Source: Anaerolineales bacterium (lineage in GTDB: Bacteria > Chloroflexota > Anaerolineae > Anaerolineales > UBA6663). Taken from it: a stretch of DNA of 64,000 nucleotides. This document shows, one piece after another, positions 5,251-52,791 of this stretch; the stretch's first letter is position 1; each line of letters starts with the position of its first letter. The position numbers and the translations under genes are program-made. The DNA lies in assembly GCA_034434015.1 (NCBI GenBank), contig DAOUAB010000229.1, positions 1-64,000 on the forward strand, written 5' to 3'. The notes under the pieces were generated by a model, which saw nothing but the letters and a program-made list of their open reading frames with translations, did no database searches and was not told the DNA's origin.

Positions 5251-5303
5251 GTGAGCATCACCTTCCACGGTCCGGGGGATTGACAAAAGGGCAGTTCTGA
5301 ATA

Positions 5304-5317
5304 AGATATGCATATCT
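5304..5317 (+). promoter_or_regulatory. Perfect 14-bp palindrome AGATATGCATATCT in an AT-rich stretch just upstream of the ArsR-family gene; candidate ArsR/SmtB operator
   Basis: Palindrome seen directly; lies 23 bp upstream of the arsR start in a locally AT-rich promoter-like region. ArsR/SmtB operators are imperfect 12-2-12 AT-rich repeats. Confidence 0.4.
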
Positions 5318-5339: not shown

Positions 5340-5654
5340 ATGATGATCGCCACAGCCAAGACCCACCTCCTCGACGAACGGACCGCTGCGCAAGTCGCGG
5401 AACTGTTCCGCGCGTTCAGCGACTCCAGCCGAGTGCGCATCATCGCCGCCCTGGCCGATGGAGAAATGAACGTGAGCGCTCTGGCCCAGGCTGCCAACGT
5501 CAGCGAGTCGGCGGTTTCTCACCACATGCGCGGCCTGCGACAGATGCGCCTGGTCCGGGCCCGCAAGGAAGGGCGTCAGGTCTTTTACGCTCTGGACGAC
5601 GACCATGTGGCGGCGCTATTCCGGCAGGGGCTGGAGCACGTCCGGCATGGATAG
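5340..5654 (+). CDS. ArsR/SmtB-family metalloregulatory transcriptional repressor
   Basis: 104 aa winged-HTH; VSALAQAANVSESAVSHHMRGLRQMRLV is typical of ArsR; precedes a P1B ATPase. Confidence 0.85.
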   Translation: MMIATAKTHLLDERTAAQVAELFRAFSDSSRVRIIAALADGEMNVSALAQAANVSESAVSHHMRGLRQMRLVRARKEGRQVFYALDDDHVAALFRQGLEHVRHG

Positions 5655-5967
5655 TCCCCAGAGTAGACGCTGGGCGCTGGCCGTGATTATCGGCCTGGTC
5701 CTCGCCGGACTGATCGGCCACCTGCTCCTGGCGGCGGCCTGTCCGGCGCCGGAACGGGCCCGCCCCGCATGTCCGGATGTTTCCCAGGCAGCGGGCGAAC
5801 TCGACCCCGGGACGTGCGCCCTGCACGCCGGATTTCAAGCGCCGCTGGCAATCCCGCTAAGCCTTCCACTGGCCCTGGTGCTGTTGGCGTTGGTCTGGCC
5901 GCGCCCCCGCGATCCAGAGACGCCGCGTTTCGCCTTCTTCCGTCCCCCCGTCGCCCTCTCAGCCTAG
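5647..5967 (+). CDS. Small hypothetical membrane protein with Cys pairs (CPAPERARPACPD)
   Basis: ATG overlaps the arsR stop (ATGGATAG); one hydrophobic helix; lies between the regulator and the ATPase. Confidence 0.3.
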   Translation: MDSPQSRRWALAVIIGLVLAGLIGHLLLAAACPAPERARPACPDVSQAAGELDPGTCALHAGFQAPLAIPLSLPLALVLLALVWPRPRDPETPRFAFFRPPVALSA

Positions 5968-6056
5968 CGCCGCGCCTGCCGCCGGCGTCTGTATGTCTTG
6001 TGGCTCGCTTTCTGCCAGGGCGAGCCTGGAACTTGGTGTTGCTTTGGAGTGCCTGA

Positions 6057-8399
6057 ATGTCCGAGAAAACGATTGAACTGGAGATCCCCGTGCTCCTGCC
6101 CGGGGTCGAGACCGATGATGACAGTTGCCTGGACCGGCTGGAGGCGGCCCTGCGCCACCAGAGAGGCCTGCTGCGCGTTCACCTCGAGCGCGAGAAACGG
6201 CCGGTCACCCTGTGCCTGCACTATGACCCCAACCTGATGAGCGTCGCGGATGTGAAACGCGCCGCCCAGCGTGCCGGCGCCCAAATCGCCAACCGCTTTC
6301 ACCATGACCTGCTCGCCATCGAGGGCATGGACTGCTCCGATTGCATCAAGGTCATCGAGCACGGCGTGGGCCGAATGCCGGGCGTCCTGGCTGTGAGTGT
6401 GAATTACCCGTCGCAGAAGCTGCGGGTGGAGTACGACACGGAGGCCACCAGCCGCGCGGCGATTGAGAAGCGCGTGCGCGGGCTGGGCTACACCGTCGCC
6501 GCCGAGGGCTGGCGAAGCTGGTATCAGGAGAATCGCGAGATCCTGTTCAGCGTCACCGCCGGCGTCCTGGTCGCCATCGGCTGGGTGGGGGAGACGTTCC
6601 TCGGCCTGCCCGCCCTCGTGGCCACCGTGCTCTACCTGGCCGCCTATGTCTTTGGCGGCTGGGACGTGTCCCGCCACGCCTGGCATGCAGTGAAGGAGCG
6701 CCACTTCGATACCGATCTGCTCATGGTCATGGCCGCCCTCGGCGCCGCGTTCCTGGGTGAGTTCGCCGAGGGCGCCTTCCTGCTCTTCCTCTTCAGCCTG
6801 GGCCATGCGCTCGAAGAACGGGCGCTTGACCGCGCCCGTCAGGCGGTGCGGGCGCTGGCGGACCTGGCACCCAAGACTGCCCTGGTGAGACGCGGCGAGC
6901 GCGAACAGGAATTGCAGGTCGAGGAGCTGCGCCTGGACGACATCGTCGTGGTGAGGCCGGGCACCCGGATCCCGGTCGACGGGGACGTGCTCGCCGGGCA
7001 GTCGGCCGTCAACCAGGCGCCGGTCACGGGCGAGTCCGCGCCCGTGGACAAGGCGCCCGGCGACCGGGTCTTCGCCGGGACGGTGAACGGCGAGGGCGCG
7101 CTGGAGGTAAAAGTGACCCGGCTGGCCCAGGACAGCACCCTGGCGCGGGTCATGAAGATGGTCGAGGAGGCCCAGACCCAGAAGTCCCCAACGCAGCAGA
7201 CGGTGGAGCGCTTCGAGCGTGTGTTTGTGCCGGCGGTGCTCGTCATCACCCTGCTCGTGATCGCCGTGCCGCCCTTGTTTGGCGTGCCCTTCCAGGTGTC
7301 TTTCCTGCGGGCGATGACGCTTCTGGTCGCGGCCTCTCCGTGCGCCCTGGCGCTCGGCACGCCGGCCTCGATCCTGGCCGGGGTCGCGCAGGCCGCGCGC
7401 AACGGCGTTCTGGTCAAAGGCGGCGTCCATCTGGAGAATCTCGGCCGGCTCAAAGCCATCGCCTTCGACAAGACCGGCACCATCACCCACGGTCAGCCGG
7501 AAGTGACCGATGTCGTGGCGTTCGGCGCGCAACTGAAAGACACCCAGCTTCTGTCGATCGCGGGCGCTGTGGAAAACCGCTCCGGCCACCCGCTGGCGCA
7601 GGCCGTCGTGCGCGCGGCCCAAGGCAAAGGGCTGGCGCTTCCCGACCCGGGCGAGGTGGAGTCGCTGACCGGGCGCGGCCTGCGCTCAACCGTCAACGGC
7701 CAAGTGGTGCTGATCGGCAACCCTAAATTGATGGACGAGTCGAATGTGACCGTGTCAGCCGACGCGCAAGCCAGGCTGGAGTCGCTGCAAGGCGAAGGCA
7801 AGACCATCATGCTGGTGGCGGTTGACGGGACCCTGGCCGGCGTGATCGCGGTGGCCGACACGCTCCGCCTCGAGGCGGCGTCGGCGATGGCGGCCCTGAG
7901 GCACCTCGGCGTGCAGGAAACCGTGATGCTCACGGGCGACAACGCCCGGGTGGCGAAAGCGATTGCGGGGAAGGTCGGCCTGACCACCTTCCGCGCCGAC
8001 CTCCTGCCGGAAGACAAAGTGACCACGGTCCGCCAGTTGAATGAGAAGTTCGGTCAGACGGCGATGGTGGGCGACGGCGTAAACGATGCCCCCGCGCTGG
8101 CGAACGCGACCGTCGGCATCGCGATGGGCGGCGCCGGCACGGATGTGGCGCTGGAGACGGCCGACGTGGCCCTGATGGGCGACGATCTCTCGAAGCTGCC
8201 TTTCGCGGTTGGATTGGGCCGCGCCACGCGGGCCATTATTCAGCAGAACCTGTTCATCTCGCTCGGTGTGATCGCACTGCTGGTGATCGCCTCGCTTACC
8301 GGCTGGACCGGCATCGGGATCGCCATCCTGTTTCATGAGGGCAGCACGATTGTGGTAGTGCTGAACGCGCTCCGGCTTCTGGGCTATCGGGCCTCATGA
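6057..8399 (+). CDS. Heavy-metal translocating P1B-type ATPase (HMA N-domain GMDCSDC; TM6 motif SPC)
   Basis: 780 aa; N-terminal HMA CxxC, DKTGTIT phosphorylation site, GDGVNDAP hinge, SPC in TM6. Confidence 0.9.
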   Translation: MSEKTIELEIPVLLPGVETDDDSCLDRLEAALRHQRGLLRVHLEREKRPVTLCLHYDPNLMSVADVKRAAQRAGAQIANRFHHDLLAIEGMDCSDCIKVIEHGVGRMPGVLAVSVNYPSQKLRVEYDTEATSRAAIEKRVRGLGYTVAAEGWRSWYQENREILFSVTAGVLVAIGWVGETFLGLPALVATVLYLAAYVFGGWDVSRHAWHAVKERHFDTDLLMVMAALGAAFLGEFAEGAFLLFLFSLGHALEERALDRARQAVRALADLAPKTALVRRGEREQELQVEELRLDDIVVVRPGTRIPVDGDVLAGQSAVNQAPVTGESAPVDKAPGDRVFAGTVNGEGALEVKVTRLAQDSTLARVMKMVEEAQTQKSPTQQTVERFERVFVPAVLVITLLVIAVPPLFGVPFQVSFLRAMTLLVAASPCALALGTPASILAGVAQAARNGVLVKGGVHLENLGRLKAIAFDKTGTITHGQPEVTDVVAFGAQLKDTQLLSIAGAVENRSGHPLAQAVVRAAQGKGLALPDPGEVESLTGRGLRSTVNGQVVLIGNPKLMDESNVTVSADAQARLESLQGEGKTIMLVAVDGTLAGVIAVADTLRLEAASAMAALRHLGVQETVMLTGDNARVAKAIAGKVGLTTFRADLLPEDKVTTVRQLNEKFGQTAMVGDGVNDAPALANATVGIAMGGAGTDVALETADVALMGDDLSKLPFAVGLGRATRAIIQQNLFISLGVIALLVIASLTGWTGIGIAILFHEGSTIVVVLNALRLLGYRAS

Positions 8400-8509
8400 G
8401 GGACAGGCCGCGGCAGGACGGGCATGAACGGCTGGAATAACGCAGACTGACCGCGCGCAACAGGTGAAGGCGTGCCCGGTTCTGTAACTCTACCAAACAG
8501 GAGGCCTTT

Positions 8510-8797
8510 ATGGAGCCCTTACAGGCGCTGTCCTTGATACTCGATCTGGCCACGGTTGGCCTGACGGTGGCGATGTTCCTGGCGCGTCCACGCGTTGGCG
8601 GCGCCATGGGGCAGGGGATCCAGATCCTCACCATTGGCTTCGTGGTGTTAGGCGTCGCATTTGTCACCGAAACTGGATTGTTCATCCTATCCCGCCTCAG
8701 TTTCCAGGCCAACGAAGTGATTCATCGCATGCTCATTGGGCTGGGGTTTGTCTTGATTATCTGGGGTTTTGGCGTGATGCGGCGCGCTTTCCAGTAG
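8510..8797 (+). CDS. Hypothetical small membrane protein (3 TM)
   Basis: Strong RBS aggagg 6 nt upstream; hydrophobic helices. Confidence 0.5.
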   Translation: MEPLQALSLILDLATVGLTVAMFLARPRVGGAMGQGIQILTIGFVVLGVAFVTETGLFILSRLSFQANEVIHRMLIGLGFVLIIWGFGVMRRAFQ

Positions 8798-8806
8798 CCG
8801 GACGGA

Positions 8807-9430
8807 ATGGATATCTTTGAGAGTATCACGAACGGGATCGTCAGCGCCGGAGCAATTATCCTGCTGGGTGTGATCCTCGCGAGCTGGCTGGCGAGTTATC
8901 GCAGACCAAAGGCCAGGCCGGTTAGGTCGGGTGACTGGTTCTTCACGCTTCCCACGTGGGCGCAAATCGTCGGTGGAGTTGGTGCCTGCGTGCTCTTTGC
9001 CTATCTGGGCTATCTGTTGTGGCTTCCGCTCCCGCTGACTGTTTCGCCCCTCGTGTCATGGATATTGCAGGTTGCCGGGCTGGTGCTTTTTCTCGCGGGG
9101 TGGCTCCTGGTCTTGTGGGCGCGCTGGGCGCTCGGCGCGATGTATGGAGTCAGCACCAGTTTCGCCGCGCCGCTGCGAGCGCAACACCGGCTGATCCAGC
9201 ACGGGCCGTACGCGTTCGTCCGGCACCCGATGTACCTGGGCTACTGGCTTTTGCTGTTGGGCATCACCTTGGTGTACCGCGCGTGGACGCCGTTGTTGCT
9301 CCTGGTGATATGCCTGGCCTCGTTCTACAGGCGGGCACGGCGCGAGGAGCAAGTGCTAGCCGAGACATTCGGCGTAGAGTGGCAGGGCTACAAGGCAAGG
9401 ACAAAGTTTCTCATCCCCTGGGTGTATTGA
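8807..9430 (+). CDS. ICMT/PEMT-family membrane methyltransferase
   Basis: 207 aa multi-TM; HGPYAFVRHPMYLGYWL ... EEQVLAETFGVEWQGYKARTKFLIPW matches the isoprenylcysteine carboxyl methyltransferase family signature. Confidence 0.75.
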   Translation: MDIFESITNGIVSAGAIILLGVILASWLASYRRPKARPVRSGDWFFTLPTWAQIVGGVGACVLFAYLGYLLWLPLPLTVSPLVSWILQVAGLVLFLAGWLLVLWARWALGAMYGVSTSFAAPLRAQHRLIQHGPYAFVRHPMYLGYWLLLLGITLVYRAWTPLLLLVICLASFYRRARREEQVLAETFGVEWQGYKARTKFLIPWVY

Positions 9431-9465
9431 GGATGAGCAGTCAACCGGGAAAGGAGAGAGGATCG

Positions 9466-9912
9466 ATGAAACGACTCGCACTGTTCACCCTTCTCGTCGC
9501 GCTGTCCGCGATGTGGATCAGCGCCTGCGGCGCCGGCTCGTCCGGCCATGACCTGGAAATGGCACCAGCATCGGCCTTGCCGCAGAAGATGCAGGATGCT
9601 CCCACTCAGGTTCGCGAGGCCTATCAATTTGCGCTCGCCAACCAGGCGGTGCTGAAAAAGATCCCCTGCTATTGCGGTTGTGGTGTGGATGGGCACACCA
9701 GCGTCAAGGACTGTTTCGTTCAAGACGTTCGCGCCGACGGCACGGTGATCTGGGACGAAATGGGGCTGGGTTGAAGCATCTGCGTGGACATCGTGCGTGA
9801 CACGATGCGACTGATGCGGGAAGGCAAGTCGCTGGCCGAGATCCGCGCCTACGTTGACGGCTATTACAGCCAGTTCGGCCCGGCCACCGACACCGAACCG
9901 GTGACCCCATAG
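9466..9912 (+). CDS. PCYCGC-motif lipoprotein; in-frame TGA at 9772-9774 (candidate selenocysteine, U-x-x-C); ORF track stops at 9774
   Basis: RBS aggagag; lipoprotein signal MKRLALFTLLVALSAMWISAC; exact PCYCGCG motif. The frame continues after TGA for 45 more codons (SICVDIVRDTMRLM...), giving about 148 aa, the length of the PCYCGC domain. Hairpin catcgtg-CGTGA-cacgatg begins 14 nt after the TGA. Confidence 0.5.
9789..9807 (+). promoter_or_regulatory. Candidate bacterial SECIS-like hairpin (7-bp stem, apical loop CGUGA) 14 nt downstream of the in-frame UGA; outer gcatc/gatgc stem extends it
   Basis: Perfect inverted repeat read directly; GU in the apical loop. Confidence 0.4.
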
Positions 9913-9947
9913 AGAAGACTGACCCTCTAGCATAAAAAGGACGGCAA

Positions 9948-10430
9948 ATGTCTCGCTCAACTCGACCCCAAACCAGACCTGTCGGGCCGCTCGTCCTGAT
10001 CGGCGTTGGCCTGACGCTTCTGATCGGTGCAATCCTGATAAGCCTAGGGCTCTCCCCAACCCCGACGGTACCCACGGCTCCCCTTCAAGATTCTGCCGAG
10101 GACACGTTTCCAGAAATTCCCCGCGTCAGCCTCGCCGACGCCCGGACCGCCTTTGATGCCCAGTCCGCCGTGTTCGTGGACGTACGCGAGCCCGACCCTT
10201 ATACCGCCGGCCACATCCCGGGCGCGCGGTCTCTCCCGTTAGCGGAACTCGAGAGCCGCCTCGGCGAACTCAGCCGTTCGGATTGGATCATCACCTACTG
10301 CACCTGACCGGCCGAGGAGTCCAGCGCCCGTGCGGCGCGCATTCTCCTTGACAACGGCTTTACTAAGGTCACACCGATCCTCGGCGGCTTCCGCGCCTGG
10401 ACGGAAGCGGGTTATCCAGTGGAGCCGTAA
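9948..10430 (+). CDS. Membrane-anchored rhodanese-domain sulfurtransferase; in-frame TGA at 10305-10307 aligns with the catalytic Cys position (candidate Sec-rhodanese); ORF track stops at 10307
   Basis: Rhodanese fold residues HIPGARSLP ... IITYCT-[TGA]-PAEESSARAARILLDNGFTKVTPILGGFRAWTEAGYPVEP continue in frame to TAA at 10428-10430. Spacing U-x6-ARAA matches catalytic C-x6 in GlpE-type rhodaneses. Hairpin gcgcc-CGTGC-ggcgc lies 16 nt after the TGA. Confidence 0.55.
10324..10338 (+). promoter_or_regulatory. Candidate SECIS-like hairpin (loop CGUGC) downstream of the rhodanese in-frame UGA; outer gaggag/ctcctt pairing possible
   Basis: Same loop core CGUG and similar spacing as the hairpin after the first in-frame UGA. 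Confidence 0.35.
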
Positions 10431-10503
10431 ATTATCGCCCGACCGGCGCCGCCTCTCTATCAGCACCGGCATCGTTCATTCACAGTCGCCGGAGACGAGA
10501 TTG

Positions 10504-11094
10504 ATGAAACTGTTTCTGCTACTTTATTTCAGCGCCTTCTTCCTCACCGCTTTCGTGTGGCGCTCTTTCCTGGTCTGGAAACGTACAGGCGTGAACCCAT
10601 ACCAACTTGGGAACACCGACAGCGCCCATGACTTCGTCGGCCGGCTTTTCAGGCTGACCATGATTGTGATTGCCGTCATCGTCATCACCTATGCAGCTTC
10701 GGATAGCGCCTATGAGTTGTTGACCCCAATCCCATGGCTGGGCCATCCGTTGCTGACGTGGGTTGGGACGGTACTGCTCGTGCTGGCGCTGGTCTGGATG
10801 CTGATCGCGCAGGCACAGATGGGGAATGCCTGGCGCATCGGTATTGACGCTGACACAAGGACAGAACTCGTGCAGACCGGCCTGTTCGCTGTCTCGCGCA
10901 ACCCGATTTTCCTCTCGATGCTGGTGATGCTGCTTGGCCTGCTTCTCGTCCTGCCTAGCGCCGCGAGCCTGGCGGTCAGCGTATTGGGCGCGGCGCTGAT
11001 TCACATTCAAATCCGGCTCGAAGAGGAGCACCTGGCCCGATTACATGGGGAAGCCTATCGCGCCTATTGCCGCCGCGTGCGGCGCTGGCTGTAG
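10504..11094 (+). CDS. ICMT/PEMT-family membrane methyltransferase (second copy)
   Basis: 196 aa; TGLFAVSRNPIFLSMLVMLLG ... EEEHLARLHGEAYRAYCRRVRRWL. The track ORF's N-terminal extension (10330-10503) overlaps the rhodanese frame and is likely spurious. Confidence 0.7.
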   Translation: MKLFLLLYFSAFFLTAFVWRSFLVWKRTGVNPYQLGNTDSAHDFVGRLFRLTMIVIAVIVITYAASDSAYELLTPIPWLGHPLLTWVGTVLLVLALVWMLIAQAQMGNAWRIGIDADTRTELVQTGLFAVSRNPIFLSMLVMLLGLLLVLPSAASLAVSVLGAALIHIQIRLEEEHLARLHGEAYRAYCRRVRRWL

Positions 11095-11107
11095 GCGCCT
11101 GGCAGAT

Positions 11108-11533
11108 ATGGACCGGTGGCACGGTGCGATCGAGAACGGGAGGAGCGCCCGCGTAACGAATGACGCGCCCGCCAACCGCTACCATTCTCGGTGCGGGTTT
11201 CGACGAATCGTCATCCTGCTGGCCTTTTTGGCCGGCCTTATCGCGGTTGCCCCGCCGGGCCTGTGCCCGTGCTGGCTCATCGCGGACGTGCGAACCTATC
11301 ATCCACACCCGGACGGCCAGCCCGACCGCCCCCACACGCACGATTACTTATTCGAGTTGTTCCATGCGCAACCGGTGGCAGCTTTGCCTGGGCCACCGAT
11401 AACGATTGGCGATCTAATGCTGGCGCTGATCGGCGCCGGTGTGTGGCGGCACCTCAGCCACCGGGCCTGGCCCGCGCAAGGCTGGGCGACGCCCCCGCCC
11501 ACTCCGCCCCCACGCCTCGCGGCCTCCTGCTGA
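11108..11533 (+). CDS. Hypothetical single-TM protein with CPC and His-rich segment (HPHPDGQPDRPHTHDY)
   Basis: ORF only; possible metal-binding motifs; weak start context. Confidence 0.3.
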   Translation: MDRWHGAIENGRSARVTNDAPANRYHSRCGFRRIVILLAFLAGLIAVAPPGLCPCWLIADVRTYHPHPDGQPDRPHTHDYLFELFHAQPVAALPGPPITIGDLMLALIGAGVWRHLSHRAWPAQGWATPPPTPPPRLAASC

Positions 11534-11584
11534 AGTTCATCGTCTACCCTTTCATGTTTTCGCTAACTGCCAGGAGGCTTGACT

Positions 11585-12178
11585 ATGTTCCGCAAACTCA
11601 TCCCAGCTCTAAGCGCACTGCTGCTGCTTGGCGTCTTGCTTATCCCGCATCCGGCTTCGGCCCACGAAGAAGTCACCGTCGGCGACTACACGCTCGAAAT
11701 CGGCTGGGTGAATGAGCCGGTGTTGCTGGGGGAAACCAATGGCGTCTTCCTGAGTGTCAGGAACACCGAAACTAAAGAACCCGTCGAGAGTCTCACGACC
11801 CTGCAAGTCGCCGTCGCCACGGGCGGCCAAACCCGCGACCTGGAACTGCACCCGCTCGGCGAGGATGCGCCCGGCCAGTATGCCGCCGACTTCATCCCCA
11901 CCGTGCGCGGCACGTACACGGTGAAGCTCACCGGCAAGATCGAAGAGCAGGACGTGGACCTGGAGCAAGAAATCGAAGAAGTCGGGCTGGCCGAAGACTA
12001 TCAATTCCCAATCGTCTTGCCTTCTCTGCCTGAGATGAACCAACAACTCACCGCCCTGCAAGCCGAGAACCAGGCGCTGCGGGCCTCCGCCACGCTCAAC
12101 CAATGGCTAGCCATTGGAGGCATCATCGTCGGGCTGGCCGGGCTGGCGGTGGGCGTCGTCAGCCTGCGCCGGAAATAA
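11585..12178 (+). CDS. YcnI-like (DUF1775) secreted copper-binding protein with C-terminal TM anchor
   Basis: RBS aggagg 7 nt upstream of ATG; signal peptide ending ASAHEE with His predicted as first mature residue; C-terminal TM; immediately upstream of a CopC-CopD gene, as in B. subtilis ycnI-ycnJ. Confidence 0.55.
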   Translation: MFRKLIPALSALLLLGVLLIPHPASAHEEVTVGDYTLEIGWVNEPVLLGETNGVFLSVRNTETKEPVESLTTLQVAVATGGQTRDLELHPLGEDAPGQYAADFIPTVRGTYTVKLTGKIEEQDVDLEQEIEEVGLAEDYQFPIVLPSLPEMNQQLTALQAENQALRASATLNQWLAIGGIIVGLAGLAVGVVSLRRK

Positions 12179-12182
12179 GGCG

Positions 12183-14936
12183 ATGAAGGCGCGCCGGCAT
12201 TTTCTCATCGTGTGGGTGGCGGTCAGCGCATTGGCACTGCTCTGGGCGAGGGCGATTCCAGCCTTCGCCCATGCCGTGCTCCTCTCCGCTGACCCGGCCC
12301 CCAACACCCTCCTCGACACCGCGCCGGCTCAAGTTCGGCTTCTTCTGACCGAGCCGGTGGCGCCCGCCTTTAGCCGGATCGCCGTCTTCGACCAATCCGG
12401 CCGGCAAGTGGACAACGGCGATTTGAAATCGGACAGCGACGATGGCACGGCGCCCGTCGTGACTCTGCCCCCGCTTTCCAGTGGGACGTATCTCGTCAGT
12501 TGGGAAGTGCTCTCCACCGTGGACGGCCACACGACCAGCGGCAGTTTTCCGTTCGGGGTGGGAGTTGCCCAACTGACCTCCGCGCCCGGCTCGGTTTCAT
12601 CCACCGCGCAGCGGCCGACCCCGTTCAGCACCGGCGCGCGCTGGTTCAACCTGACCGGACTCGCGTTACTACTGGGCCTCCTCACCTTCCGCCTGTTGGT
12701 CTGGAACCCGGCCTTCAAGGGCGTTGAGCTGAATGAAGCCGATGAGCGACTTGACTTGGCATTTGGACGCGCGAGCCTGAAAGTGGGCATCGCCGGGTTA
12801 GCGTTGGTGGGATTGGGCTTGATTTTTACCCTGATCGCGCAGGCCGCCAGGATAAACCTGTTGAGCTTCGACAACCTGAGAACTTGGCTGGGTACGCAAT
12901 TCGGCTCACTGTGGTTGGTTCGCTTTTTAGTGACGACGACGGTGGGCTTTGCCATGGCAGATCTATACGTCGGGTTGGGAGAAGGCCGTCGAGGCTTACG
13001 CGGCTGGGAATGGTGGGCCGGACTGGCGGCGTTGATTGGCCTCGCGCTGACAACCGCCTTGGTGAGTCACAGCGCCGCCCTTACTCAGGATACCCAACAG
13101 GCCATCGCGGTGGATGTCGTGCATGTCCTGGCTGCCGGGGTCTGGGTGGGGGGCCTGCTTCAACTGGCGCTTGGGCTGTGGATGGGACGGTCATTCCCGG
13201 CGAACTCGCGGGCGTGGCTCAACTTGAGCCTCTCGCTCAACTTCTCGGCGCTGGCGGCGGGCGCGGTGGGCGCGCTGCTGGTCAGCGGAAGCTACCTGGC
13301 CTGGAAACACGTCGGGAGTTGGACCGCGCTCTTCGGCACAGCGTATGGCCTGACCTTGCTCGCCAAGCTAGCGCTGGCTGTGCCCGCCTTCAGCATCGCG
13401 GCGGTCAATCTCTTGATCATCAAGCCCAGGCTGGACGCGGCCCTCGACCATCCCGAAGCAGCTTCGGCGCTCACGCTGCAACAGCGCTTTGGGCGGCTGG
13501 TGCGCGCGGAAGGTGTATTCGCCTTGCTGGTCCTCGCCGCGGCCGGCCTACTCACCGACCTGCAACGCGGGCAAGATGCGCCCCTGCTGTCCAGCCAGGC
13601 CGAGAAGGTCACGCTGGCGCAACCCGCCGAAGACTTGAACATCTCGCTCAGCCTCGAACCGGCGCTCGTCGGGCAGAACACGTTTGATGTGTACGTGACG
13701 GATGCCAGCGGCCAGCCGGTCGCGGACGCCAAAGAAGTATCGCTGCGTTTCACGTTCTTGGGCCAATCCATCGGCACGGCCGAAGCCAACGCGCCATCAT
13801 CCGGCGATGGACATTACCGCGTGGATGGCGGCTATCTGAGTCTGGCAGGGCCGTGGCAGGTGGAAGTCGCGGTGCGCCGTTCCGAGGCGTTCGACGTTTT
13901 CGCCGCATACCGCGTGGAAGCCGGTCTGAGCGGGGCGATTCAGCCGGTAGGTGGGCAGGCCGGTCTGATTGAGCAACTAACCAAGTTCCTGACCCGCAGC
14001 GGCGGCGCGGCGACGGGCGTCTTTCTCGTGTTGTTCGCCGTCACCTGGTCACTCCTCGCCGGCCGCGCCGCGAAGGAGGACTGGCAGTTGGTGCTGCTAT
14101 TCCTGCCGAGCCTGCTTGCTTTTTGGATTGGGGGAGTCCAGCTGTTCACCTTCGTCCGCGAGTTCACGCCCGCGAAGTTTGTGACCAATCCCATCTTGCC
14201 CGACTCGGCCTCCATCACGCGCGGGCAGGAACTCTACCAGGCCAACTGTGTGACGTGTCACGGCCCGGAAGGGCGCGGCGATGGCCCAGGGGCCATTGGC
14301 CTCACCCCGCCGCCCGCCGACTTCACCGCCGGGCATACGGAGAGCCACCCGGATGGCGACCTGTATTATTGGATCAAAGAAGGGATCAAGGACACCGCCA
14401 TGCCAGCGTTCGGAGACCAGTTCGACGATGAAGACATTTGGCACTTAGTCAACTACGTCCGCCGGTTGAGCGCACAGGAATACCAACCACCCGGGCCCGG
14501 CACATCATCGCCAGGGGTCAGTGATTCGCAGGCTGTGCTGTTCTTGCAGCAAGTCGAGGGAGTGATGAATCAGTTCGCCTCCATGGAGGCAGTGGAAGTA
14601 CTTCGCGATGACAGTGGCGTCGTGACCGCTACCATAATCGCATATCCCCATTTCAATTTCAGCCGTGAGGCCATTGACGTGCAGTTTGGGCCGACGAGCG
14701 AGTTGAGTGGTCAAAGCCAAGCCCGGCAGACCGTCACATTTGCCGTCGGGACTGGCGACTTGCGCTATGACTACGTCTTGGAGGTGGACCCCGCCACGCT
14801 GCGGATTGTCCGCTGGACAATGGATGGACCGAATCACCACATGATGACCGAATACACGACCTATCATCTGCCCGCAACCGTCACCCCGCCATCGGAACTG
14901 TTTGCGCCTACGGCCACGCCCATCGGTACTCCTTAG
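12183..14936 (+). CDS. CopC-CopD fusion (YcnJ-like) with C-terminal mono-haem cytochrome c domain
   Basis: N-terminal CopC fold (signal peptide, AHAVLLSADPAPNTLL...); about 8 TM CopD region; C-terminal CVTCHGPEGRGDG CxxCH with downstream Met ligand region. Confidence 0.85.
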   Translation: MKARRHFLIVWVAVSALALLWARAIPAFAHAVLLSADPAPNTLLDTAPAQVRLLLTEPVAPAFSRIAVFDQSGRQVDNGDLKSDSDDGTAPVVTLPPLSSGTYLVSWEVLSTVDGHTTSGSFPFGVGVAQLTSAPGSVSSTAQRPTPFSTGARWFNLTGLALLLGLLTFRLLVWNPAFKGVELNEADERLDLAFGRASLKVGIAGLALVGLGLIFTLIAQAARINLLSFDNLRTWLGTQFGSLWLVRFLVTTTVGFAMADLYVGLGEGRRGLRGWEWWAGLAALIGLALTTALVSHSAALTQDTQQAIAVDVVHVLAAGVWVGGLLQLALGLWMGRSFPANSRAWLNLSLSLNFSALAAGAVGALLVSGSYLAWKHVGSWTALFGTAYGLTLLAKLALAVPAFSIAAVNLLIIKPRLDAALDHPEAASALTLQQRFGRLVRAEGVFALLVLAAAGLLTDLQRGQDAPLLSSQAEKVTLAQPAEDLNISLSLEPALVGQNTFDVYVTDASGQPVADAKEVSLRFTFLGQSIGTAEANAPSSGDGHYRVDGGYLSLAGPWQVEVAVRRSEAFDVFAAYRVEAGLSGAIQPVGGQAGLIEQLTKFLTRSGGAATGVFLVLFAVTWSLLAGRAAKEDWQLVLLFLPSLLAFWIGGVQLFTFVREFTPAKFVTNPILPDSASITRGQELYQANCVTCHGPEGRGDGPGAIGLTPPPADFTAGHTESHPDGDLYYWIKEGIKDTAMPAFGDQFDDEDIWHLVNYVRRLSAQEYQPPGPGTSSPGVSDSQAVLFLQQVEGVMNQFASMEAVEVLRDDSGVVTATIIAYPHFNFSREAIDVQFGPTSELSGQSQARQTVTFAVGTGDLRYDYVLEVDPATLRIVRWTMDGPNHHMMTEYTTYHLPATVTPPSELFAPTATPIGTP

Positions 14937-28011: not shown

Positions 28012-28177
28012 CCCCGCGAACCTGATCGGGCTCACCCTCTGGGAATGGCCGGGGCGTACACCACGGTCCTGCGTGTGGTCGCACCCAGCGGGTGAGTTTG
28101 AGAATTGCAGCCTGATACCGCCGGAGTGAACGGGTCTCCCGAAATCCACCGCTGTGACTCACGTCTCCGGGAGGTGC

Positions 28178-38115: not shown

Positions 38116-38754
38116 ATGCGCAAAATACTTTCCGTTGGTCTTGTGGCAGCGTTGGCCCTCGTGCTGACTGGCGCGTTCTTTTTTGCCGGGGTGGCCCTGG
38201 CCCAATCGCGTGGATCGGTCGCAGTCCCAACCCCCATGTCACCCGGCGCGTATATCAACCCCAATCCCGGCAACACAGGGGGTGATCCGTGGGGTTGGGG
38301 GTCGAGATCAGGGATGCGCTGGGGCGGGCCGGGGATGATGAACGGCTGTTGTGGCAATGGCAGCTGGCGTGAAGATTGGGGCGGTTGGGGGATGGGCTCG
38401 ATGCGAATGGGCATGATGCCGATGCATGGGTACTGGGGCCGTTCGACCGCCATCACGTCAACAGTTCCCGCACCGACTACCACATCGGTTTCATTCCAGA
38501 AAGACATTCAACCGATCTTCGAGGCGCGGTGTGTGGCCTGTCACGGCGGCGCGCGCGGCCTGTACCTGACCGACTACGACAGCGTGCTGCGTGGCAGTAC
38601 GAATGGGCCGGTCATCCTTCCGGGTGACCCGGTTGGCAGTCGCCTGATTCAGTATGTCGCCAGCGGCTATATGCCCTATGGCGGCCCGTCGCTGACCCAG
38701 GCGCAGATTCAGACACTCGTGAACTGGGTGGCAGCCGGCGCGCCCAACAACTGA
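38116..38754 (+). CDS. Secreted Met/Gly-rich protein with C-terminal cytochrome c (PSCyt1-like CxxCH) domain
   Basis: Signal peptide; GMRWGGPGMMNGCCGNGSW...GMGSMRMGMMPMHGYWG; CVACHGG haem motif. Confidence 0.7.
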   Translation: MRKILSVGLVAALALVLTGAFFFAGVALAQSRGSVAVPTPMSPGAYINPNPGNTGGDPWGWGSRSGMRWGGPGMMNGCCGNGSWREDWGGWGMGSMRMGMMPMHGYWGRSTAITSTVPAPTTTSVSFQKDIQPIFEARCVACHGGARGLYLTDYDSVLRGSTNGPVILPGDPVGSRLIQYVASGYMPYGGPSLTQAQIQTLVNWVAAGAPNN

Positions 38755-46588: not shown

Positions 46589-47215
46589 ATGTTCCTGAGA
46601 AGCATGGTTCTGCTCCTGCTTGCACTGGTGGCCGTCAATCTGTGGTGGCGCTGGGCGAGCCGTCGCCGCTCGCTCCCCTGCCCCACATGGCTGGCTGGGT
46701 TTGTGGATGGCCCTGTGATGGATAGAGTCCTGGGCACGCAGACTACCCTGGATCGCATTGGGCTGCGACCTGGCTATCGGGTGCTCGAAATAGGGCCGGG
46801 GCCCGGTCGGCTGCTCATCCCGGCCGCCCGGCGTGTGCTACCCGGCGGCGAAGTCGTCGGCCTGGATATCCAGCCGGGGATGATTGAACGGCTCAAAGCG
46901 CGGGCGGCGCAGGCCGGTGCGTCGAACCTGACGACGAGTGTGGGCGATGCGACGCAACCGCATTTTCCACCAGATAGTTTTGACGTGATTTATTTCTGCA
47001 CGGTACTGGGCGAAATCCCGAACCGTGAAGCGGCGTTGCGGCAGTGTTATGCGGCGCTCAAATCTGGCGGCCAGCTTTCGATCACGGAAATCTTTCCCGA
47101 CCCACACTACCAATCCCGCGCGACAGTGAAACGATTGGCAGAGGCGACGGGCTTTCGACTACAAGCCATGCCCGGGCCGTGGTACTTTTTCTCGGCGAAC
47201 TTTGTGAAAGCATAG
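46589..47215 (+). CDS. Class I SAM-dependent methyltransferase (N-terminal TM)
   Basis: Motif I VLEIGPGPG; motif II/III DVIYFCTVLGEIPN. Confidence 0.8.
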   Translation: MFLRSMVLLLLALVAVNLWWRWASRRRSLPCPTWLAGFVDGPVMDRVLGTQTTLDRIGLRPGYRVLEIGPGPGRLLIPAARRVLPGGEVVGLDIQPGMIERLKARAAQAGASNLTTSVGDATQPHFPPDSFDVIYFCTVLGEIPNREAALRQCYAALKSGGQLSITEIFPDPHYQSRATVKRLAEATGFRLQAMPGPWYFFSANFVKA

Positions 47216-47241: not shown

Positions 47242-47835
47242 ATGAGCCAAACGTTTTTCCACAGCGTCTTTGTCGTCTTCTTCACGCTGTTTGCCGCGAT
47301 CCGTGTGTATTTCCAGTGGCGCGCCCGGCTAGTGCAGGGGCAGGTTGAATACAAAGAAGGTAAGCTGAATATCGCCTTGCGCGCCCTCATTGGCGCAATA
47401 TTTTTCCTCGATGTCTTACTCTACATCGTTCGCCCGCAGGTCCTGGCGTGGGCGGAACTGCCGCTGCCGCAATGATTGCAGTGGCTGGGCGTTGTGCTGG
47501 GCATAGTCAGTCTTCCCCTCCTCGCGTGGACGCAGCAGGCCCTGGGGAGCAATTTTTCGCCGACGCTCCATGTGCGCCGGGAGCATAGGCTGGTGACCAG
47601 CGGGCCTTATCGCTACATGCGCCACCCGATGTATACGGCATTGTTTCTGTCCATGGCGGCGATTCTACTGCTGACGCGGAGCTGGCTCGTCGGCGGTGTT
47701 CCGCTCGTCGGCCTGTGTGTGATCGTGCTCCTGCGCGTCGAGCGTGAAGAGCGCGTGATGATCGGGAAATTCGGCGACGCGTATCGCGACTATATGAAAC
47801 GCACCGGACGATTTTTGCCTCGGGTGATACGTTGA
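47242..47835 (+). pseudogene. ICMT/PEMT-family methyltransferase interrupted by in-frame TGA at 47473-47475
   Basis: N-terminal TM half (MSQTFFHSVFVVFF...) and C-terminal catalytic half (GPYRYMRHPMYTALFL...EERVMIGKFGDAYRDYMKRTGRF) are in the same frame separated by a single TGA. The aligned position in paralogs is a hydrophobic residue, not Cys. No downstream hairpin seen. Confidence 0.5.
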
Positions 47836-48169: not shown

Positions 48170-50296
48170 ATGAACACCAAACAACTCGAACTTCGTGTTG
48201 CCAACCTCGATTGCGAACATGATGCAGCCAACATTGAGCGTGGCCTGCAAAGCTTCGCGGGGCTGACTGGGCTAAAGGTCTATCCGAAATCCGCCAAAGT
48301 CACATTGACCTACGATCCGGCGCTGACCCGGCCCGAAGCCTTGAAAGAAAAGCTGGAAGCGCTCGGCTTTCCACCGCAAAAGGGCATGGAGATGGCCGAG
48401 CAGCCTAAACCCTGGCGCAACCCCAAGGTGCTCACGTCGGCTGCGTCGGGTGTGCTGTTGCTCGCCGGCTGGCTCATCGGGCTGGCTGGCGCACCAGAGA
48501 TTGTCTCAACCGTCATTTATGTTGCCGCCATCCTCATCGGCGGATATTTCTTTGGCCGGGAAGCCATCGAAGAGTTGATCTTCGAGCGCGAGATCGGCAT
48601 TGAGCTGCTTATGAGCGTGGCTGCTGTCGTGGCGATGATCATGGGCCAGGCCGCCGAAGGCGCCATGCTGGTCTTCCTGTATTCCATCAGCGAAGCGGCT
48701 GAAGGTTACACGGAAGAGAAAACCCGTGCGGCGATCAAGGCGCTGATGAACCTGGCGCCGAAGGTCGCGCTGGTCCGGCGCGATGGGGTCGAGCGTGAGA
48801 TCCCGGTCGAAGAACTGGAAGTGGGCGACGTGTTCATCGTCAAGCCGGGACAGTCCGTCGCCACGGACGGCGTGGTGCTCGTCGGCGCTTCCAGCATGAA
48901 CCAGGCCCCGGTCACGGGCGAGAGCGTGCCGGTGGAGAAGCAGCCCGGCGACACAGTGTTCGCGGGCAGCATCAACGGCGAGGGTGCGCTGGAAGTCCGG
49001 GCGACCAAGACCTTCGCCGAGAACACCATCGCGCGCATCATCCACATGGTCGAAGAGGCCCAGGAGAAGAAAGGCAGGAGCCAGCGCTTCATCGAACGCT
49101 TCGGCGCGCGCTACAGCCCGGCGGTGCTGCTTATCGGAATTCTCATCGCCGCGATTCCGCCGCTGTTCTTCAGCGCCGATTGGACGACCTGGATCACCCG
49201 CGCCACGGTCTTCATCGTGGCCGCCGCCCCGTGTGCCCTGGTCATCTCGATCCCCATCACCCTGGTGGCTTCACTCGGCACGGGCGCGCGCCAGGGCGTG
49301 CTCATCAAGGGCGGCGTCTACGTCGAAGAACTGGCGAAAGTAAAGGTGGTGGCGCTGGATAAGACCGGCACGCTGACGAGAGGCGAACCGGAAGTAACCG
49401 ATGTGGTGCTCTGCCGCACCGACCCGGATCAACCTACGACTTCTGCCCAAGAAGTGCTGGCGGTAGCGGCTGGCATCGAGCGGCGCAGCGGTCATCCCCT
49501 GGCGCGGGCTATCGTCCGCCATGCTGAGCAGCAGACAGTTGCTCCAGCGGAACTGGACAGCTTCCGGTCGCTGACCGGGGCGGGGGCGTCGGCGCGCCTG
49601 GACGGGCATACCGTATACGTCGGCAGCCCGGACCTGTTTCACGCCCGCCTGGGCGTCTCTTTGCATGGCGCGTGGGACGACATTCAACAGCTTCAGGGCG
49701 AAGGCAAGACCGTGGTGGTCGTCGGCGACGAGCAGGCGCCGTGGGGCCTGATCGCCATCCGCGACAACATCCGCCCGAATGCGCGCAAAGCGATTGACGC
49801 GCTGCACGCGGCGGGCGTTCAGAAGGTTGTGATGCTCACCGGCGACAACGAACGCACCGCACAGGCCATCGCCCGAGAGTTGGGCATTGACGAGGTATAT
49901 GCCGACTTGAAGCCGGAAGACAAACTGGTGAAAGTGCGCGAGCTGTCTCAGCGACATGGCCACGTCGCGATGGTGGGCGACGGGGTGAACGATGCTCCGG
50001 CGCTGGCCGAAGCGACCGTGGGCGTGGCGATGGGCGCGGCGGGCACGGACGTGGCGCTGGAAACCGCCGACGTGGCCCTGATGGCAGACGATCTGGAGAA
50101 GCTGGCTTACGCGCTCCGGTTGGCGAAGCGCAACCAGTCGGTCGTGAACCAGAACCTGGGGCTGTCGGCCCTGGTGATCGGCGCGTTAGTCGTTGGCGCG
50201 GTCGCCGGCGTCTTCTCCCTGCCTATCGCCGTACTGGGCCACGAGATCAGCGAGTTCGTCGTCATCGGTAGTGGCTTGCGGATGCTGCGGGCCTGA
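48170..50296 (+). CDS. Heavy-metal P1B-type ATPase (degenerate HMA N-domain; TM6 motif APC)
   Basis: [28 protein letters not shown]. Confidence 0.9.
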   Translation: MNTKQLELRVANLDCEHDAANIERGLQSFAGLTGLKVYPKSAKVTLTYDPALTRPEALKEKLEALGFPPQKGMEMAEQPKPWRNPKVLTSAASGVLLLAGWLIGLAGAPEIVSTVIYVAAILIGGYFFGREAIEELIFEREIGIELLMSVAAVVAMIMGQAAEGAMLVFLYSISEAAEGYTEEKTRAAIKALMNLAPKVALVRRDGVEREIPVEELEVGDVFIVKPGQSVATDGVVLVGASSMNQAPVTGESVPVEKQPGDTVFAGSINGEGALEVRATKTFAENTIARIIHMVEEAQEKKGRSQRFIERFGARYSPAVLLIGILIAAIPPLFFSADWTTWITRATVFIVAAAPCALVISIPITLVASLGTGARQGVLIKGGVYVEELAKVKVVALDKTGTLTRGEPEVTDVVLCRTDPDQPTTSAQEVLAVAAGIERRSGHPLARAIVRHAEQQTVAPAELDSFRSLTGAGASARLDGHTVYVGSPDLFHARLGVSLHGAWDDIQQLQGEGKTVVVVGDEQAPWGLIAIRDNIRPNARKAIDALHAAGVQKVVMLTGDNERTAQAIARELGIDEVYADLKPEDKLVKVRELSQRHGHVAMVGDGVNDAPALAEATVGVAMGAAGTDVALETADVALMADDLEKLAYALRLAKRNQSVVNQNLGLSALVIGALVVGAVAGVFSLPIAVLGHEISEFVVIGSGLRMLRA

Positions 50297-50330: not shown

Positions 50331-50684
50331 ATGCGACTTATCGCCAGCAGAGAAGTCATAGACCTGCGCACCAAACTGTTACGGGGCTTCGCCGACCCGC
50401 CCCGGCTCTTAATCCTGGAGCCCCTCCGAGCCGGACCATTGACGGTGAGCGAAATCGCAGAGGCAACCGGCCTTGCACAATCGGATGTCTCTGCTCATAT
50501 CGCCTGTTTGCGCGACTGCGGCCTCGTGATCGAGATACCGCAGGGACGCTCCGGTTACTATGAGTTGAGTGACAGGCGCATCGGGCAATTCCTGCGTCTC
50601 ATCGATGAATTATTGGTAGACGTGGCAAAGGGCGTGTCCGAATGCGCGCGCTACAATTCCCCACAGGAGCCCACGCATGGATAA
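50331..50684 (+). CDS. ArsR/SmtB-family CmtR-like metal sensor (paralog of 44350-44772)
   Basis: RBS gaggag; [12 protein letters not shown]; C-terminal SECARYN; overlaps the downstream ATPase start. Confidence 0.85.
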
Positions 50685-52791
50685 ACTTCAAACCCTCACG
50701 ATTCCAATCGCTGGTATGGACTGCGCCGAATGCACTCAGCATGTCCAGCACGCTATTGCCGCTGTGCCGGGCGTTGAGTCCGTCAACGTCTTTTTGTCTT
50801 CCGAGAAAGCCGTTATTCGGCTCGACCCGGCGCGGGTGAGTTTGCCCGCCCTCCGCAAGGCCGTCGCCAGCGCCGGAAACTATTCGGTGCCGGAGTCAGT
50901 CGCAACGCCGGCTGCCCCGCCTGGGTTGAACGATTTCACTCGCCGGGTGGTCACACTCTTAGCCGTCGTGTTCGGTGCAGTGTTGTTCGTCATCGTCGTC
51001 GGCGAGTGGCTGGGCCTGTTCGAGCGCATCACCGAACTGGTGCCTTTCCCCATCGGGGTGCTGTTGGTCATCCTCGGCGGATGGCCCATCTTCCGCAACG
51101 TCCTGCGCGCCGCCCTCAAGCGGCAGGTCACCTCACACACGCTGATGACACTCGGCGTGCTGGCCGCGCTGGCCATCGGGCAGTGGGCGACGGCCGCTGT
51201 TGTCGTCTTCTTTATGCGCGTCGGCGATTACGCCGAAAGCTTCACCACCGAACGCGCCCGCCGCGCGGTGAAAGACCTGACGGCGATGGCCCCGCAAACG
51301 GCCCGCGTCGAGCGGGATGGTGTAGAAATCGAAGTTCCGATTACCGAAGTGAGCGTCGGCGATACCGTCATCGTCCGGCCTGGTGAGAAAATCCCGGTGG
51401 ATGGCGAAGTCACGTCGGGACAGGCCACCGTGGATCAGGCAACCATCACGGGCGAGTCCATGCCAGTCGAGGCCGGCCCCGGTGCGAGAGTGTTTGCCGC
51501 GACCATTGCCAGGCTGGGCAGTTTGCGAGTCCGGGCCACCCATGTTGGGGCCGATACCACTTTTGGTCGCGTTATCAAGATGGTAGAAGAGGCCGAAGCG
51601 CACCGGGCCGATGTGCAGCGCTTCGCCGACAAGTTCACGGCCTATTATCTGCCGATGGTCGCGGGCCTGGCCGCAATCACTTTCCTCATCAGCCGCAACC
51701 CGTTGTCCACCGCCGCCGTGCTGGTCGTGGCGTGTTCCTGCTCCATCGCACTGGCCACGCCGATTGCGATGCTGGCCTCGATCGGGGCCGGCGCGAAGCG
51801 CGGCCTGCTCATCAAGGGCGGCAAATACATCGAGACGTTGGCGCACGCCGACGTACTCCTGATTGACAAGACCGGCACGCTCACCCTCGGCCAGCCGCAA
51901 ATCACCGACGTGATTCCATTGAACGGACTATCCACCTCGGAGGTGCTCGCGCTGGCCGGGTCTGCCGAACGCTACTCGGAGCATCCGCTGGCCGAAGCGG
52001 TGCGCGTGGCGGCTCGTGCCCGGAATCTACCGTTGGCCGAACCCCAAGATTTTGAAGCCATCCCCGGCATGGGTCTGCGCGCGAAGGTGGATGGAAGCAT
52101 CGTGACGGTGGGCAACCGCCGTCTCATCCCCATGGCTGAGTCGCTATCTATAGCCCACGCTTTCGAAGCGCAGGGCAAGACACTCTTGTTTGTGGCGCGC
52201 AATGATGAACTCGCGGGGGTGTTAGCTGCCGCCGATACTCTGCGCCCCGAGGTGCCTGCGGCACTGAACGCTGTGCGCGCTTTAGGTGTGCCGCAAGTTG
52301 AGCTGCTCACCGGTGACAACGAGCGCACAGCTGCCGCGCTCGCTGACAAGCTCAGCGTAAGGTATCGCGCCAATCTTCTCCCCGAAGACAAGATTGCGGT
52401 GGTGAAAGCGTATCAGGCGCAAGGCCGCACTGTGGTGATGGTGGGCGACGGAGTGAACGATGCACCGGCATTGGCGCAGGCAGATGTGGGCATCGCAATG
52501 GGCGCGGCGGGAACCGACATCGCCATCGAGGCCGCCCACATCGCGCTGATGCGCGACGACTGGGCGCTTGTTCCAGAGGTCTTTCGCATCGCGCGGCGGA
52601 CGATGCAGGTGGTCAAAATGAACCTGGTCTTCACCGCCATTTACAATGTGGCGGGGCTGACGCTGGCCGCCTTTGGCTTCCTGCCGCCCATCTTTGCCGC
52701 CGCCGCGCAATCTCTGCCGGATTTGGGCATCCTGGCGAATTCGTCGCGGCTGCTGCGGGTGCATTCGCAGATTTTGGCCGGTCGGGAGTAG
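50677..52791 (+). CDS. Heavy-metal P1B-type ATPase with HMA domain (GMDCAEC) and atypical TM6 motif CSC
   Basis: [13 protein letters not shown] in place of CPC; DKTGTLT; GDGVNDAP. Confidence 0.9.

Follow-up and report, generated by a model that had tools for sequence, protein, structure and literature searches.

The closest described relatives of the genes presented here are two catalogued selenoprotein families (PMC13188914): the CYCXC family protein (OS_HP4; PF13798), with selenocysteine (Sec, U) in a UxxC motif, and rhodanese form 3 (NF041203), with Sec in a CxU motif. The same source credits OS_HP4 to Zhang & Gladyshev (2007), the main text of which does not contain that name. For the bacterial Sec insertion sequence (SECIS), the bSECIS model (PMC13188914) describes a stem of 4-16 bp, a loop of 3-9 nt with G at loop position 1-2 followed by G or U, a spacing of 16-37 nt and a minimum free energy (MFE) of at most -7.5 kcal/mol. 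In this study, we analyzed 64,000 nucleotides of an Anaerolineales bacterium (assembly GCA_034434015.1, contig DAOUAB010000229.1, positions 1 to 64,000 of the forward strand; hereafter the window), in which two adjacent genes, gene A and gene B, each contain an in-frame TGA. Gene A resembles NF041379, the OS_HP4 model, in its PF13798 domain, CYCGC cluster, predicted Sec in U-x-x-C, Cys homologues and putative SECIS directly after the UGA. Gene B shares with NF041203 a single rhodanese domain, a predicted Sec at the position of the catalytic Cys and a Cys two residues upstream (C-x-U). The hairpins of both genes are like the bacterial SECIS consensus (bSECISearch model; Escherichia coli fdhF) in lying within the coding sequence after the UGA and in having a small loop in which G is followed by U.

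We consider it highly probable (about 0.9) that both are genuine selenoprotein genes, in which UGA would be decoded as Sec via local SECIS hairpins. This reading is based on the conservation of the TGA, the Cys homologues, purifying selection downstream, a hairpin that fits the SECIS model and shows conservation as well as compensatory changes, and the location of U at a catalytic Cys position.

Results

Both reading frames continue past an in-frame UGA

Gene A starts with ATG at 9466, reaches TGA at 9772-9774 and runs for 45 further sense codons to a TAG stop at 9910-9912. Its PF13798 match (residues 32-144, model positions 37-151 of 153; 101 bits against a cut-off of 25) spans the TGA, which corresponds to residue 103 in the local context GLG-U-SIC, so that U-S-I-C occupies residues 103-106. 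The P-C-Y-C-G-C cluster lies at residues 67-72, and the lipobox Cys21 is at least 90% conserved in the family alignment. Gene B begins with ATG at 9948 and continues beyond its TGA (10305-10307) for 40 more codons to a TAA stop at 10428-10430. The PF00581 match (residues 63-153; 57.5 bits against a gathering threshold of 22.2) again spans the TGA, here at residue 120. T-Y-C-T-U forms residues 116-120 with a C-x-U motif that is invariant in the clade, and in alignments with solved rhodaneses U falls on the catalytic Cys (CGSGFRS in 6mxv, CAGRTRS in 1yt8). A hydrophobic stretch is found at the site of the predicted membrane anchor in all homologues.

A protein search with gene A returned more than 1,200 relatives. 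The full-length homologues (about 147 amino acids, 50-57% identical) all have Cys in the TGA column (LGCSICVDIT), and the ten closest database entries (73-99% identical) are all 102-103 amino acids long, ending exactly at the TGA. A genome scan with one genome per species yielded 80 loci and a metagenome scan only eight, mostly Cys forms. Taking the window and all fetched loci together (n = 90), the codon in the U column is TGA in 62, TGC in 19 and TGT in nine. Anaerolineae, further Chloroflexota, Candidatus Binatia, Desulfobacteraceae, Syntrophobacteraceae, Verrucomicrobiia and Pyrinomonadaceae are among the groups with Sec forms; the Cys forms come from Bacillales/Paenibacillus and part of the Chloroflexota. 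Without exception, the reading frame of the Sec forms runs on into the conserved sequence ...IC(V/I)(D/G)IT/VRD.... The closest relative from the genome scan (77%) is binned as Methylomonas, which suggests either horizontal transfer or mis-binning.

Most of the 143 relatives of gene B in the protein database are 114-123 amino acids long, i.e., they end at the TGA. At the DNA level, all 12 distinct sequences of the clade carry TGA, down to about 44% protein identity, and the distant homologues P0220, P0226 and P0231 (about 34% identity; YCTCP.EESSG) carry Cys at this position. In a further rhodanese of the same clade (L104, 5837-6310), CGA (Arg) replaces TGA and the hairpin lacks its outermost pair. 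This looks like a Sec codon lost through one T-to-C change, which would probably leave an inactive enzyme.

The sequence beyond the TGAs bears the signature of a coding region. Compared with the homologous locus L101, the 40 codons past the gene B TGA show 20 synonymous and four non-synonymous differences, versus three synonymous and 23 non-synonymous ones in a +1 control frame; for gene A the selection test points in the same direction. Judged by these substitution patterns, the codons downstream of both TGAs are under purifying selection and translated.

These results agree with the original prediction, made from the letters alone, that both genes read through a TGA into conserved domain sequence, that gene A becomes a protein of roughly 148 residues with a U-x-x-C motif, that the gene B TGA coincides with the catalytic Cys site and that gene calls truncate both genes. 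The Cys that it proposed to look for at the U position of Cys orthologues is present for both genes, and orthologues do not genuinely end at the TGAs, as the conserved downstream frame under purifying selection indicates.

A conserved hairpin follows each UGA

A putative SECIS hairpin is located just past each TGA (Table 1), and both hairpins agree with every element of the bSECIS model (PMC13188914). The upper stems begin 14 nt (gene A) and 16 nt (gene B) past the TGA, and in both genes the 5-nt loop occupies nt 25-29 counted from the U of UGA, i.e., 21 nt past the codon. The spacing of 14-16 nt, the loop CGUG(A/C) and the SECIS-like placement of its GU had all been foreseen from the sequence, and the folds reproduce them. 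For gene B the MFE is -9.3 kcal/mol with the upper stem alone and -17.5 kcal/mol with the lower stem included (z -2.9). When both strands of the window were scanned for a TGA followed by a CGUGN-loop hairpin at a spacing of 16-37 nt, five cases were found, against a mean of 1.6 in shuffles; at the exact offset of the gene A and gene B hairpins, only these two in-frame TGAs remain.

Across 52 distinct Sec-form sequences of gene A, 98.4% of the cells of the stem are paired, two pairs show compensatory changes (A-U to G-C in 11 sequences, C-G to U-A in 10), and none of 500 shuffles matches the stem for percentage paired, cells changed on both sides or covariation score. Sliding the structure by 1-3 columns results in far less pairing. 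The loop is CG(U/G)GA in all 52 sequences. Third-codon positions within the hairpin are 92-100% conserved in Sec forms, compared to 39-61% in Cys forms, and positions 15, 39 and 48 outside the stem-loop reach only 31-52%. Of the 28 Cys forms, with 69% pairing overall, a single one has both the full stem and the CGUGA loop. This Cys form (TGT; L046, 2289-2336) retains the complete 7-bp stem, which suggests a recent Sec-to-Cys conversion.

The compensatory changes in the gene A stem also change the protein (DIVRDTM, DITRDVM, DIARDAM): residues four apart covary while the stem is always kept. In addition, the 19-nt hairpin (nt 18-36 past the TGA) is nearly identical in Chloroflexota, Binatia and Desulfobacteraceae. 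Such a near-invariant candidate SECIS across phyla, together with a covarying motif, suggests that the RNA constrains the protein or that the gene was spread by horizontal transfer.

In gene B, the upper stem of the hairpin (GCGCC-CGUGC-GGCGC) is paired in all 12 distinct sequences, and L101 shows a compensatory change from C:G to U:A via two synonymous substitutions. Support for this hairpin comes mainly from conservation and not from covariation.

Other candidates in the window were rejected. At 38567 (+), a TGA precedes a 7-bp hairpin (loop CGUGG) whose spacing is almost that of genes A and B, but this TGA is out of frame with the gene at 38116-38754 and thus attributable to chance. Another TGA, located at 28127 ahead of a DUF1573 gene, has no Cys/Sec motif, and a screen for further recoded TGAs by GC content at third codon positions and extension length returned only out-of-frame shadows. 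The sole Rfam return, a snoRNA match, is a chance hit.

Alternative explanations and points against Sec decoding

The alternative that survives best, and which we nevertheless regard as very unlikely, is that the UGA codons are read through but not as Sec, i.e., with a suppressor or near-cognate tRNA that inserts Trp or Cys, with a reassigned code, or with Cys delivered by SelB on tRNA(Sec). It could draw on the unverified state of the Sec machinery in the source genome and on the Trp present at the Sec position in several database homologues, namely the 'full-length' versions of the Sec-rhodanese designated P0124-P0133, P0137, P0141 and P0143 in public protein collections. These Trp versions are gene-calling artefacts of a TGA=Trp code applied to short contigs, since the DNA of one of them (L103, 698-1162) has TGA at this position. 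Reassignment is also at odds with the remainder of the window, where TGA is the commonest stop and terminates 36 of the 59 other called genes; the standard code therefore applies and any read-through is local, as was originally proposed. Moreover, homologues have Cys, and not Trp or Gly, at both positions, and a position-specific hairpin of the SECIS model is needed by SelB-dependent decoding but not by general read-through.

Less likely still, the TGAs may be true stops that leave truncated genes or decaying pseudogenes, with the downstream frames as relics. Public callers indeed end both genes there (gene A at 102 and gene B at 119 amino acids), in keeping with the prevalence of TGA stops and the lack of Sec machinery in the window. 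Against this, dozens of species from different phyla retain the TGA together with an intact downstream frame under purifying selection, truncation would remove the catalytic residue as well as half of each Pfam domain, and relics would not show a conservation of synonymous sites that is limited to the hairpin. Finally, sequencing or assembly errors for TGC or TGT, conceivable because the window is apparently a metagenome assembly and one base change gives Cys, have a negligible probability: five assemblies made independently from different samples (ENA, two from JGI, two from Logan) contain identical loci with the same TGAs, an orthologous locus at about 75% identity contains both genes with both TGAs, and further diverged orthologues carry the same codons. 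Identical proteins are also encoded on a contig of 246 kb, and the contig is present in hot-spring or sediment samples.

Several results weigh against the interpretation of both genes as selenoprotein genes. The Pfam-annotated gene calls, which cover the window to about 60 kb, include no selA, selB or selD, and ARAGORN detects no tRNA, thus no tRNA-Sec, in the window. No SECIS or tRNA-Sec match was returned by Rfam, either for the window at the gathering threshold or for 9700-10450 at E-values up to 10. The single-sequence fold z-scores are modest (-1.3 to -2.9). Stem complementarity in gene A is partly inherent in the D-I-T-x-D-V-M motif, which is present in some Cys forms, and the covariation of gene B comes from L101 alone and is reached by 49 of 500 shuffles. 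Lastly, the two genes are neighbours only in the window lineage, L006, L021, L023 and L026 (in L026 with up to about 3 kb between them), and most loci contain just one of the two. They are thus separate modules in a common context and no obligate pair.

Beyond the window, ARAGORN detected no tRNA-Sec in 97 fetched loci. Searches by tblastn with E. coli SelD and SelA, which served as probes only, returned one selD fragment, confirmed with NCBIfam, and no selA match. The fragment is the C-terminal part of selD at the end of an Anaerolineae contig (L019), about 9.5 kb from a Sec-form PCYCGC gene (TIGR00476, 115 bits against a cut-off of 125 for the full-length protein). Downstream of this PCYCGC gene, at 9802-13825, a metallo-beta-lactamase/rhodanese fusion, a flavoprotein and the selD part together look like a sulfur/selenium cluster; the flavoprotein matches 'type III sulfide:quinone reductase, selenoprotein subtype' best, with 235 bits where the cut-off is 525.

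Relationship to catalogued families

The best NCBIfam match of gene A is NF041379, 'CYCXC family (seleno)protein' (OS_HP4), with 60.7 bits against an equivalog cut-off of 90. Seven other relatives of gene A, five Sec and two Cys forms, score 52-77 bits with this model, all below 90 as well. The motifs listed for NF041379, a CYCXC cluster and Sec (here predicted) in UxxC, are found in gene A. Similarly, gene B matches NF041203, 'rhodanese-related (seleno)protein' (LYCAU), best, with 68.8 bits against a cut-off of 115, and contains its C-x-U active-site motif. A match to NF045694, the TsoB rhodanese/DsbD fusion-like selenoprotein, is excluded by a score of 27.4 bits against 805 and by the single domain of gene B (160 amino acids). 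Both genes are consequently mis-annotated new members of already catalogued selenoprotein families and no new kind. The assumption of the original prediction that a Sec-containing PCYCGC protein would be new does not hold, as NF041379 matches gene A; its statement that rhodanese-like proteins are a known selenoprotein family is correct, the CxU form being listed as NF041203. The lipoprotein branch of gene A is related to, but lies outside, the curated NF041379 equivalog, which explains its truncation in public annotation; the rule used by NCBI would probably not call gene A.

Genomic context

Genes A and B are part of a same-strand gene run with the elements of a metal-efflux operon (Table 1). 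The P1B ATPase of this run scores higher with Zn/Cd/Pb-type models (541 bits) than with Cu-type models (425 bits), and the CopC-CopD-YtkA-cytochrome c fusion is followed by DUF3105, DUF305 and PCuAC-like genes. The window contains two more P1B ATPases (48170-50296 and 50677-52791 in addition to 6057-8399), several ArsR-type regulators, two lipoprotein signal peptidase genes and CopC/CopD genes; its 5' end carries an IS21-type IstB and two tyrosine integrases. In view of the integrase and IS21 genes and the two additional ATPases, the window looks like a mobile metal-resistance island. A methyltransferase at 46589-47215, similar to the neighbours of Sec-PCYCGC genes, adjoins an ICMT fragment and a P1B ATPase; the 80-amino-acid ICMT open reading frame (ORF) at 47593 was considered as a recoded gene and proved to be a C-terminal fragment.

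Table 1. Coordinates of the features of the window discussed in the text.
Feature	Position	Strand	Basis
Gene A, PCYCGC-family (PF13798) lipoprotein, 148 aa, predicted U103 in U-S-I-C	9466..9912	+	translation, Pfam, homologues
Lipobox I-S-A-C (residues 18-21), signal peptide end, gene A	9517..9528	+	read from translation
In-frame UGA of gene A, putative Sec codon	9772..9774	+	62 TGA vs 28 TGC/TGT
Putative SECIS hairpin of gene A: upper stem CAUCGUG / CACGAUG, 7 bp (9789-9795 / 9801-9807), loop CGUGA (9796-9800), lower stem not conserved, MFE -8.9 kcal/mol	9789..9807	+	folds, comparative pairing
Gene B, membrane-anchored single-domain rhodanese, 160 aa, predicted U120 in C-T-U	9948..10430	+	translation, PF00581, catalytic Cys alignment
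Predicted N-terminal transmembrane anchor of gene B, about residues 13-35, Arg-rich residues before it	9984..10052	+	translation; topology inferred
In-frame UGA of gene B, putative Sec codon	10305..10307	+	TGA in 12/12 distinct clade sequences
Putative SECIS hairpin of gene B: upper stem GCGCC / GGCGC, 5 bp (10324-10328 / 10334-10338), loop CGUGC (10329-10333), lower stem 6 bp (10314-10319 / 10344-10349)	10314..10349	+	folds, conservation
Same-strand gene run (putative operon)	5340..14936	+	Pfam on identical contigs, NCBIfam
Promoter-like site	5280-5307		weak evidence
ArsR/SmtB regulator	5340-5654	+	
106-aa protein, between ArsR/SmtB regulator and P1B ATPase		+	
P1B ATPase	6057-8399	+	
95-aa membrane protein	8510-8797	+	
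ICMT-like methyltransferases, before gene A and after gene B	8807-9430, 10504-11094	+	
197-aa protein, between second ICMT-like methyltransferase and CopC-CopD fusion		+	
CopC-CopD-YtkA-cytochrome c fusion	12183-14936	+	

A similar context recurs elsewhere. In four of five unrelated loci, ArsR and P1B ATPase genes precede the Sec-rhodanese, and two of them have an intervening ICMT-like gene. The most frequent families among the 147 ORFs flanking about 40 Sec-PCYCGC genes are 17 S-adenosylmethionine (SAM) methyltransferases, 13 CDF cation-efflux proteins, seven P1B ATPases, five ICMT proteins and five cytochromes c. Considering the two nearest genes on either side in loci L018-L065, a SAM-dependent methyltransferase (UbiE/Methyltransf_11/25) is present in about 40%, mostly in Binatia and deltaproteobacterial metagenome-assembled genomes, and a CDF cation-efflux gene in about a third.

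At L010 (JRYK01089018.1, 1377-1930), one frame runs from the C-terminal part of a PCYCGC protein (...GKSLAEI) into a rhodanese (DERLAELSPTDWIITYCT*...), and about 500 nt that would separate two similar 'LAE(I/L)' stretches are absent. Either a deletion has fused both selenoprotein genes, or this metagenome contig is an assembly chimera. The split P1B ATPase beside a Sec-rhodanese at L102 (3516-5866) was rejected as a Sec gene, as it results from a frameshift without TGA read-through, which points to an assembly error or a pseudogene.

Discussion

In the mechanism that we propose, the hairpin just past each UGA would act as a bacterial SECIS element and recruit SelB-GTP-Sec-tRNA(Sec), so that UGA 9772 and UGA 10305 would be translated as Sec rather than as a stop. 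The gene A product would thereby obtain a Sec that forms a U-x-x-C pair where a helix has its N-terminus, beside the Cys-rich PCYCGC...H...C cluster. The gene B product would be a rhodanese held at the outer membrane face by its N-terminal anchor, with Sec in place of the catalytic Cys and a second Cys two residues upstream, and would carry a Se-S or Se-Se persulfide-type intermediate. Actual Sec insertion, as well as the localisation and biochemical role of both products, we infer from these sequence features, with both proteins predicted on the outer face of the membrane.

Regarding function, we favour an extracytoplasmic selenol/thiol redox or soft-metal-binding centre for the gene A product and a Sec-based transfer of sulfur (or selenium) for the gene B product. 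Both would likely serve the handling of thiophilic metals, or a linked sulfur/selenium chemistry, outside the cytoplasm. A more elaborate model, which we put forward tentatively and consider unlikely, combines the two into an extracytoplasmic selenol-based module of Chloroflexota heavy-metal efflux operons, alongside the ICMT-like methyltransferases and the P1B ATPase. The Sec-rhodanese would generate reactive Se-S/persulfide species at the outer membrane face, and the Sec/Cys-rich lipoprotein would bind or reduce thiophilic metal after its export, or maintain its own thiols in a reduced state in a CcmH-like manner. If true, this would reveal a use of Sec in metal resistance, which is experimentally unstudied so far.

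The annotation of these genes has practical consequences. Both are truncated in every public gene call that we have seen, some entries have Trp at the Sec position, and the curated NCBIfam selenoprotein models fail to reach these members. As a result, databases lack the catalytic halves of these proteins for a large number of Chloroflexota and of other uncultured lineages. The operon would also extend a growing list by two selenoproteins that are tied to metal/metalloid handling and predicted to be placed outside the cytoplasm.

Among proteins of known structure, a Foldseek search of the PDB with a structure model of P0002, the closest Cys homologue of gene A, gave nothing significant. The periplasmic domain of CcmH (PDB 2hl7), a CXXC thiol-disulfide oxidoreductase of cytochrome c maturation, was returned with a non-significant E-value of 1.7 at 16% identity and is a lead only; the PCYCGC cluster of the gene A family has no counterpart in CcmH. 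Compared to the catalogued selenoprotein families, the NF041379 model comprises 90 positions, versus lipoproteins of about 148 amino acids in the gene A branch, and this branch occurs in metal-efflux contexts in several phyla, among them Chloroflexota and Binatia. Gene B is distinguished from NF041203 by its N-terminal membrane anchor and, in Chloroflexota, by its ArsR and P1B ATPase neighbours, often with an ICMT-like gene.

The putative SECIS elements differ from the bacterial consensus in that two unrelated genes have the CGUG(A/C) loop and the 21-nt spacing in common, and in gene A the loop and spacing are almost invariant across phyla. In fdhF, the G-U of the loop lies about 3 nt closer to the UGA. 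The present genes leave the knowledge of recoding as such unchanged. What is worth keeping is the loop and spacing common to two unrelated genes, the recurrent placement in metal-efflux operons, and the clean SECIS set of gene A, a natural data set of 52 distinct sequences with Cys forms as controls for recognition by SelB proteins other than that of E. coli.

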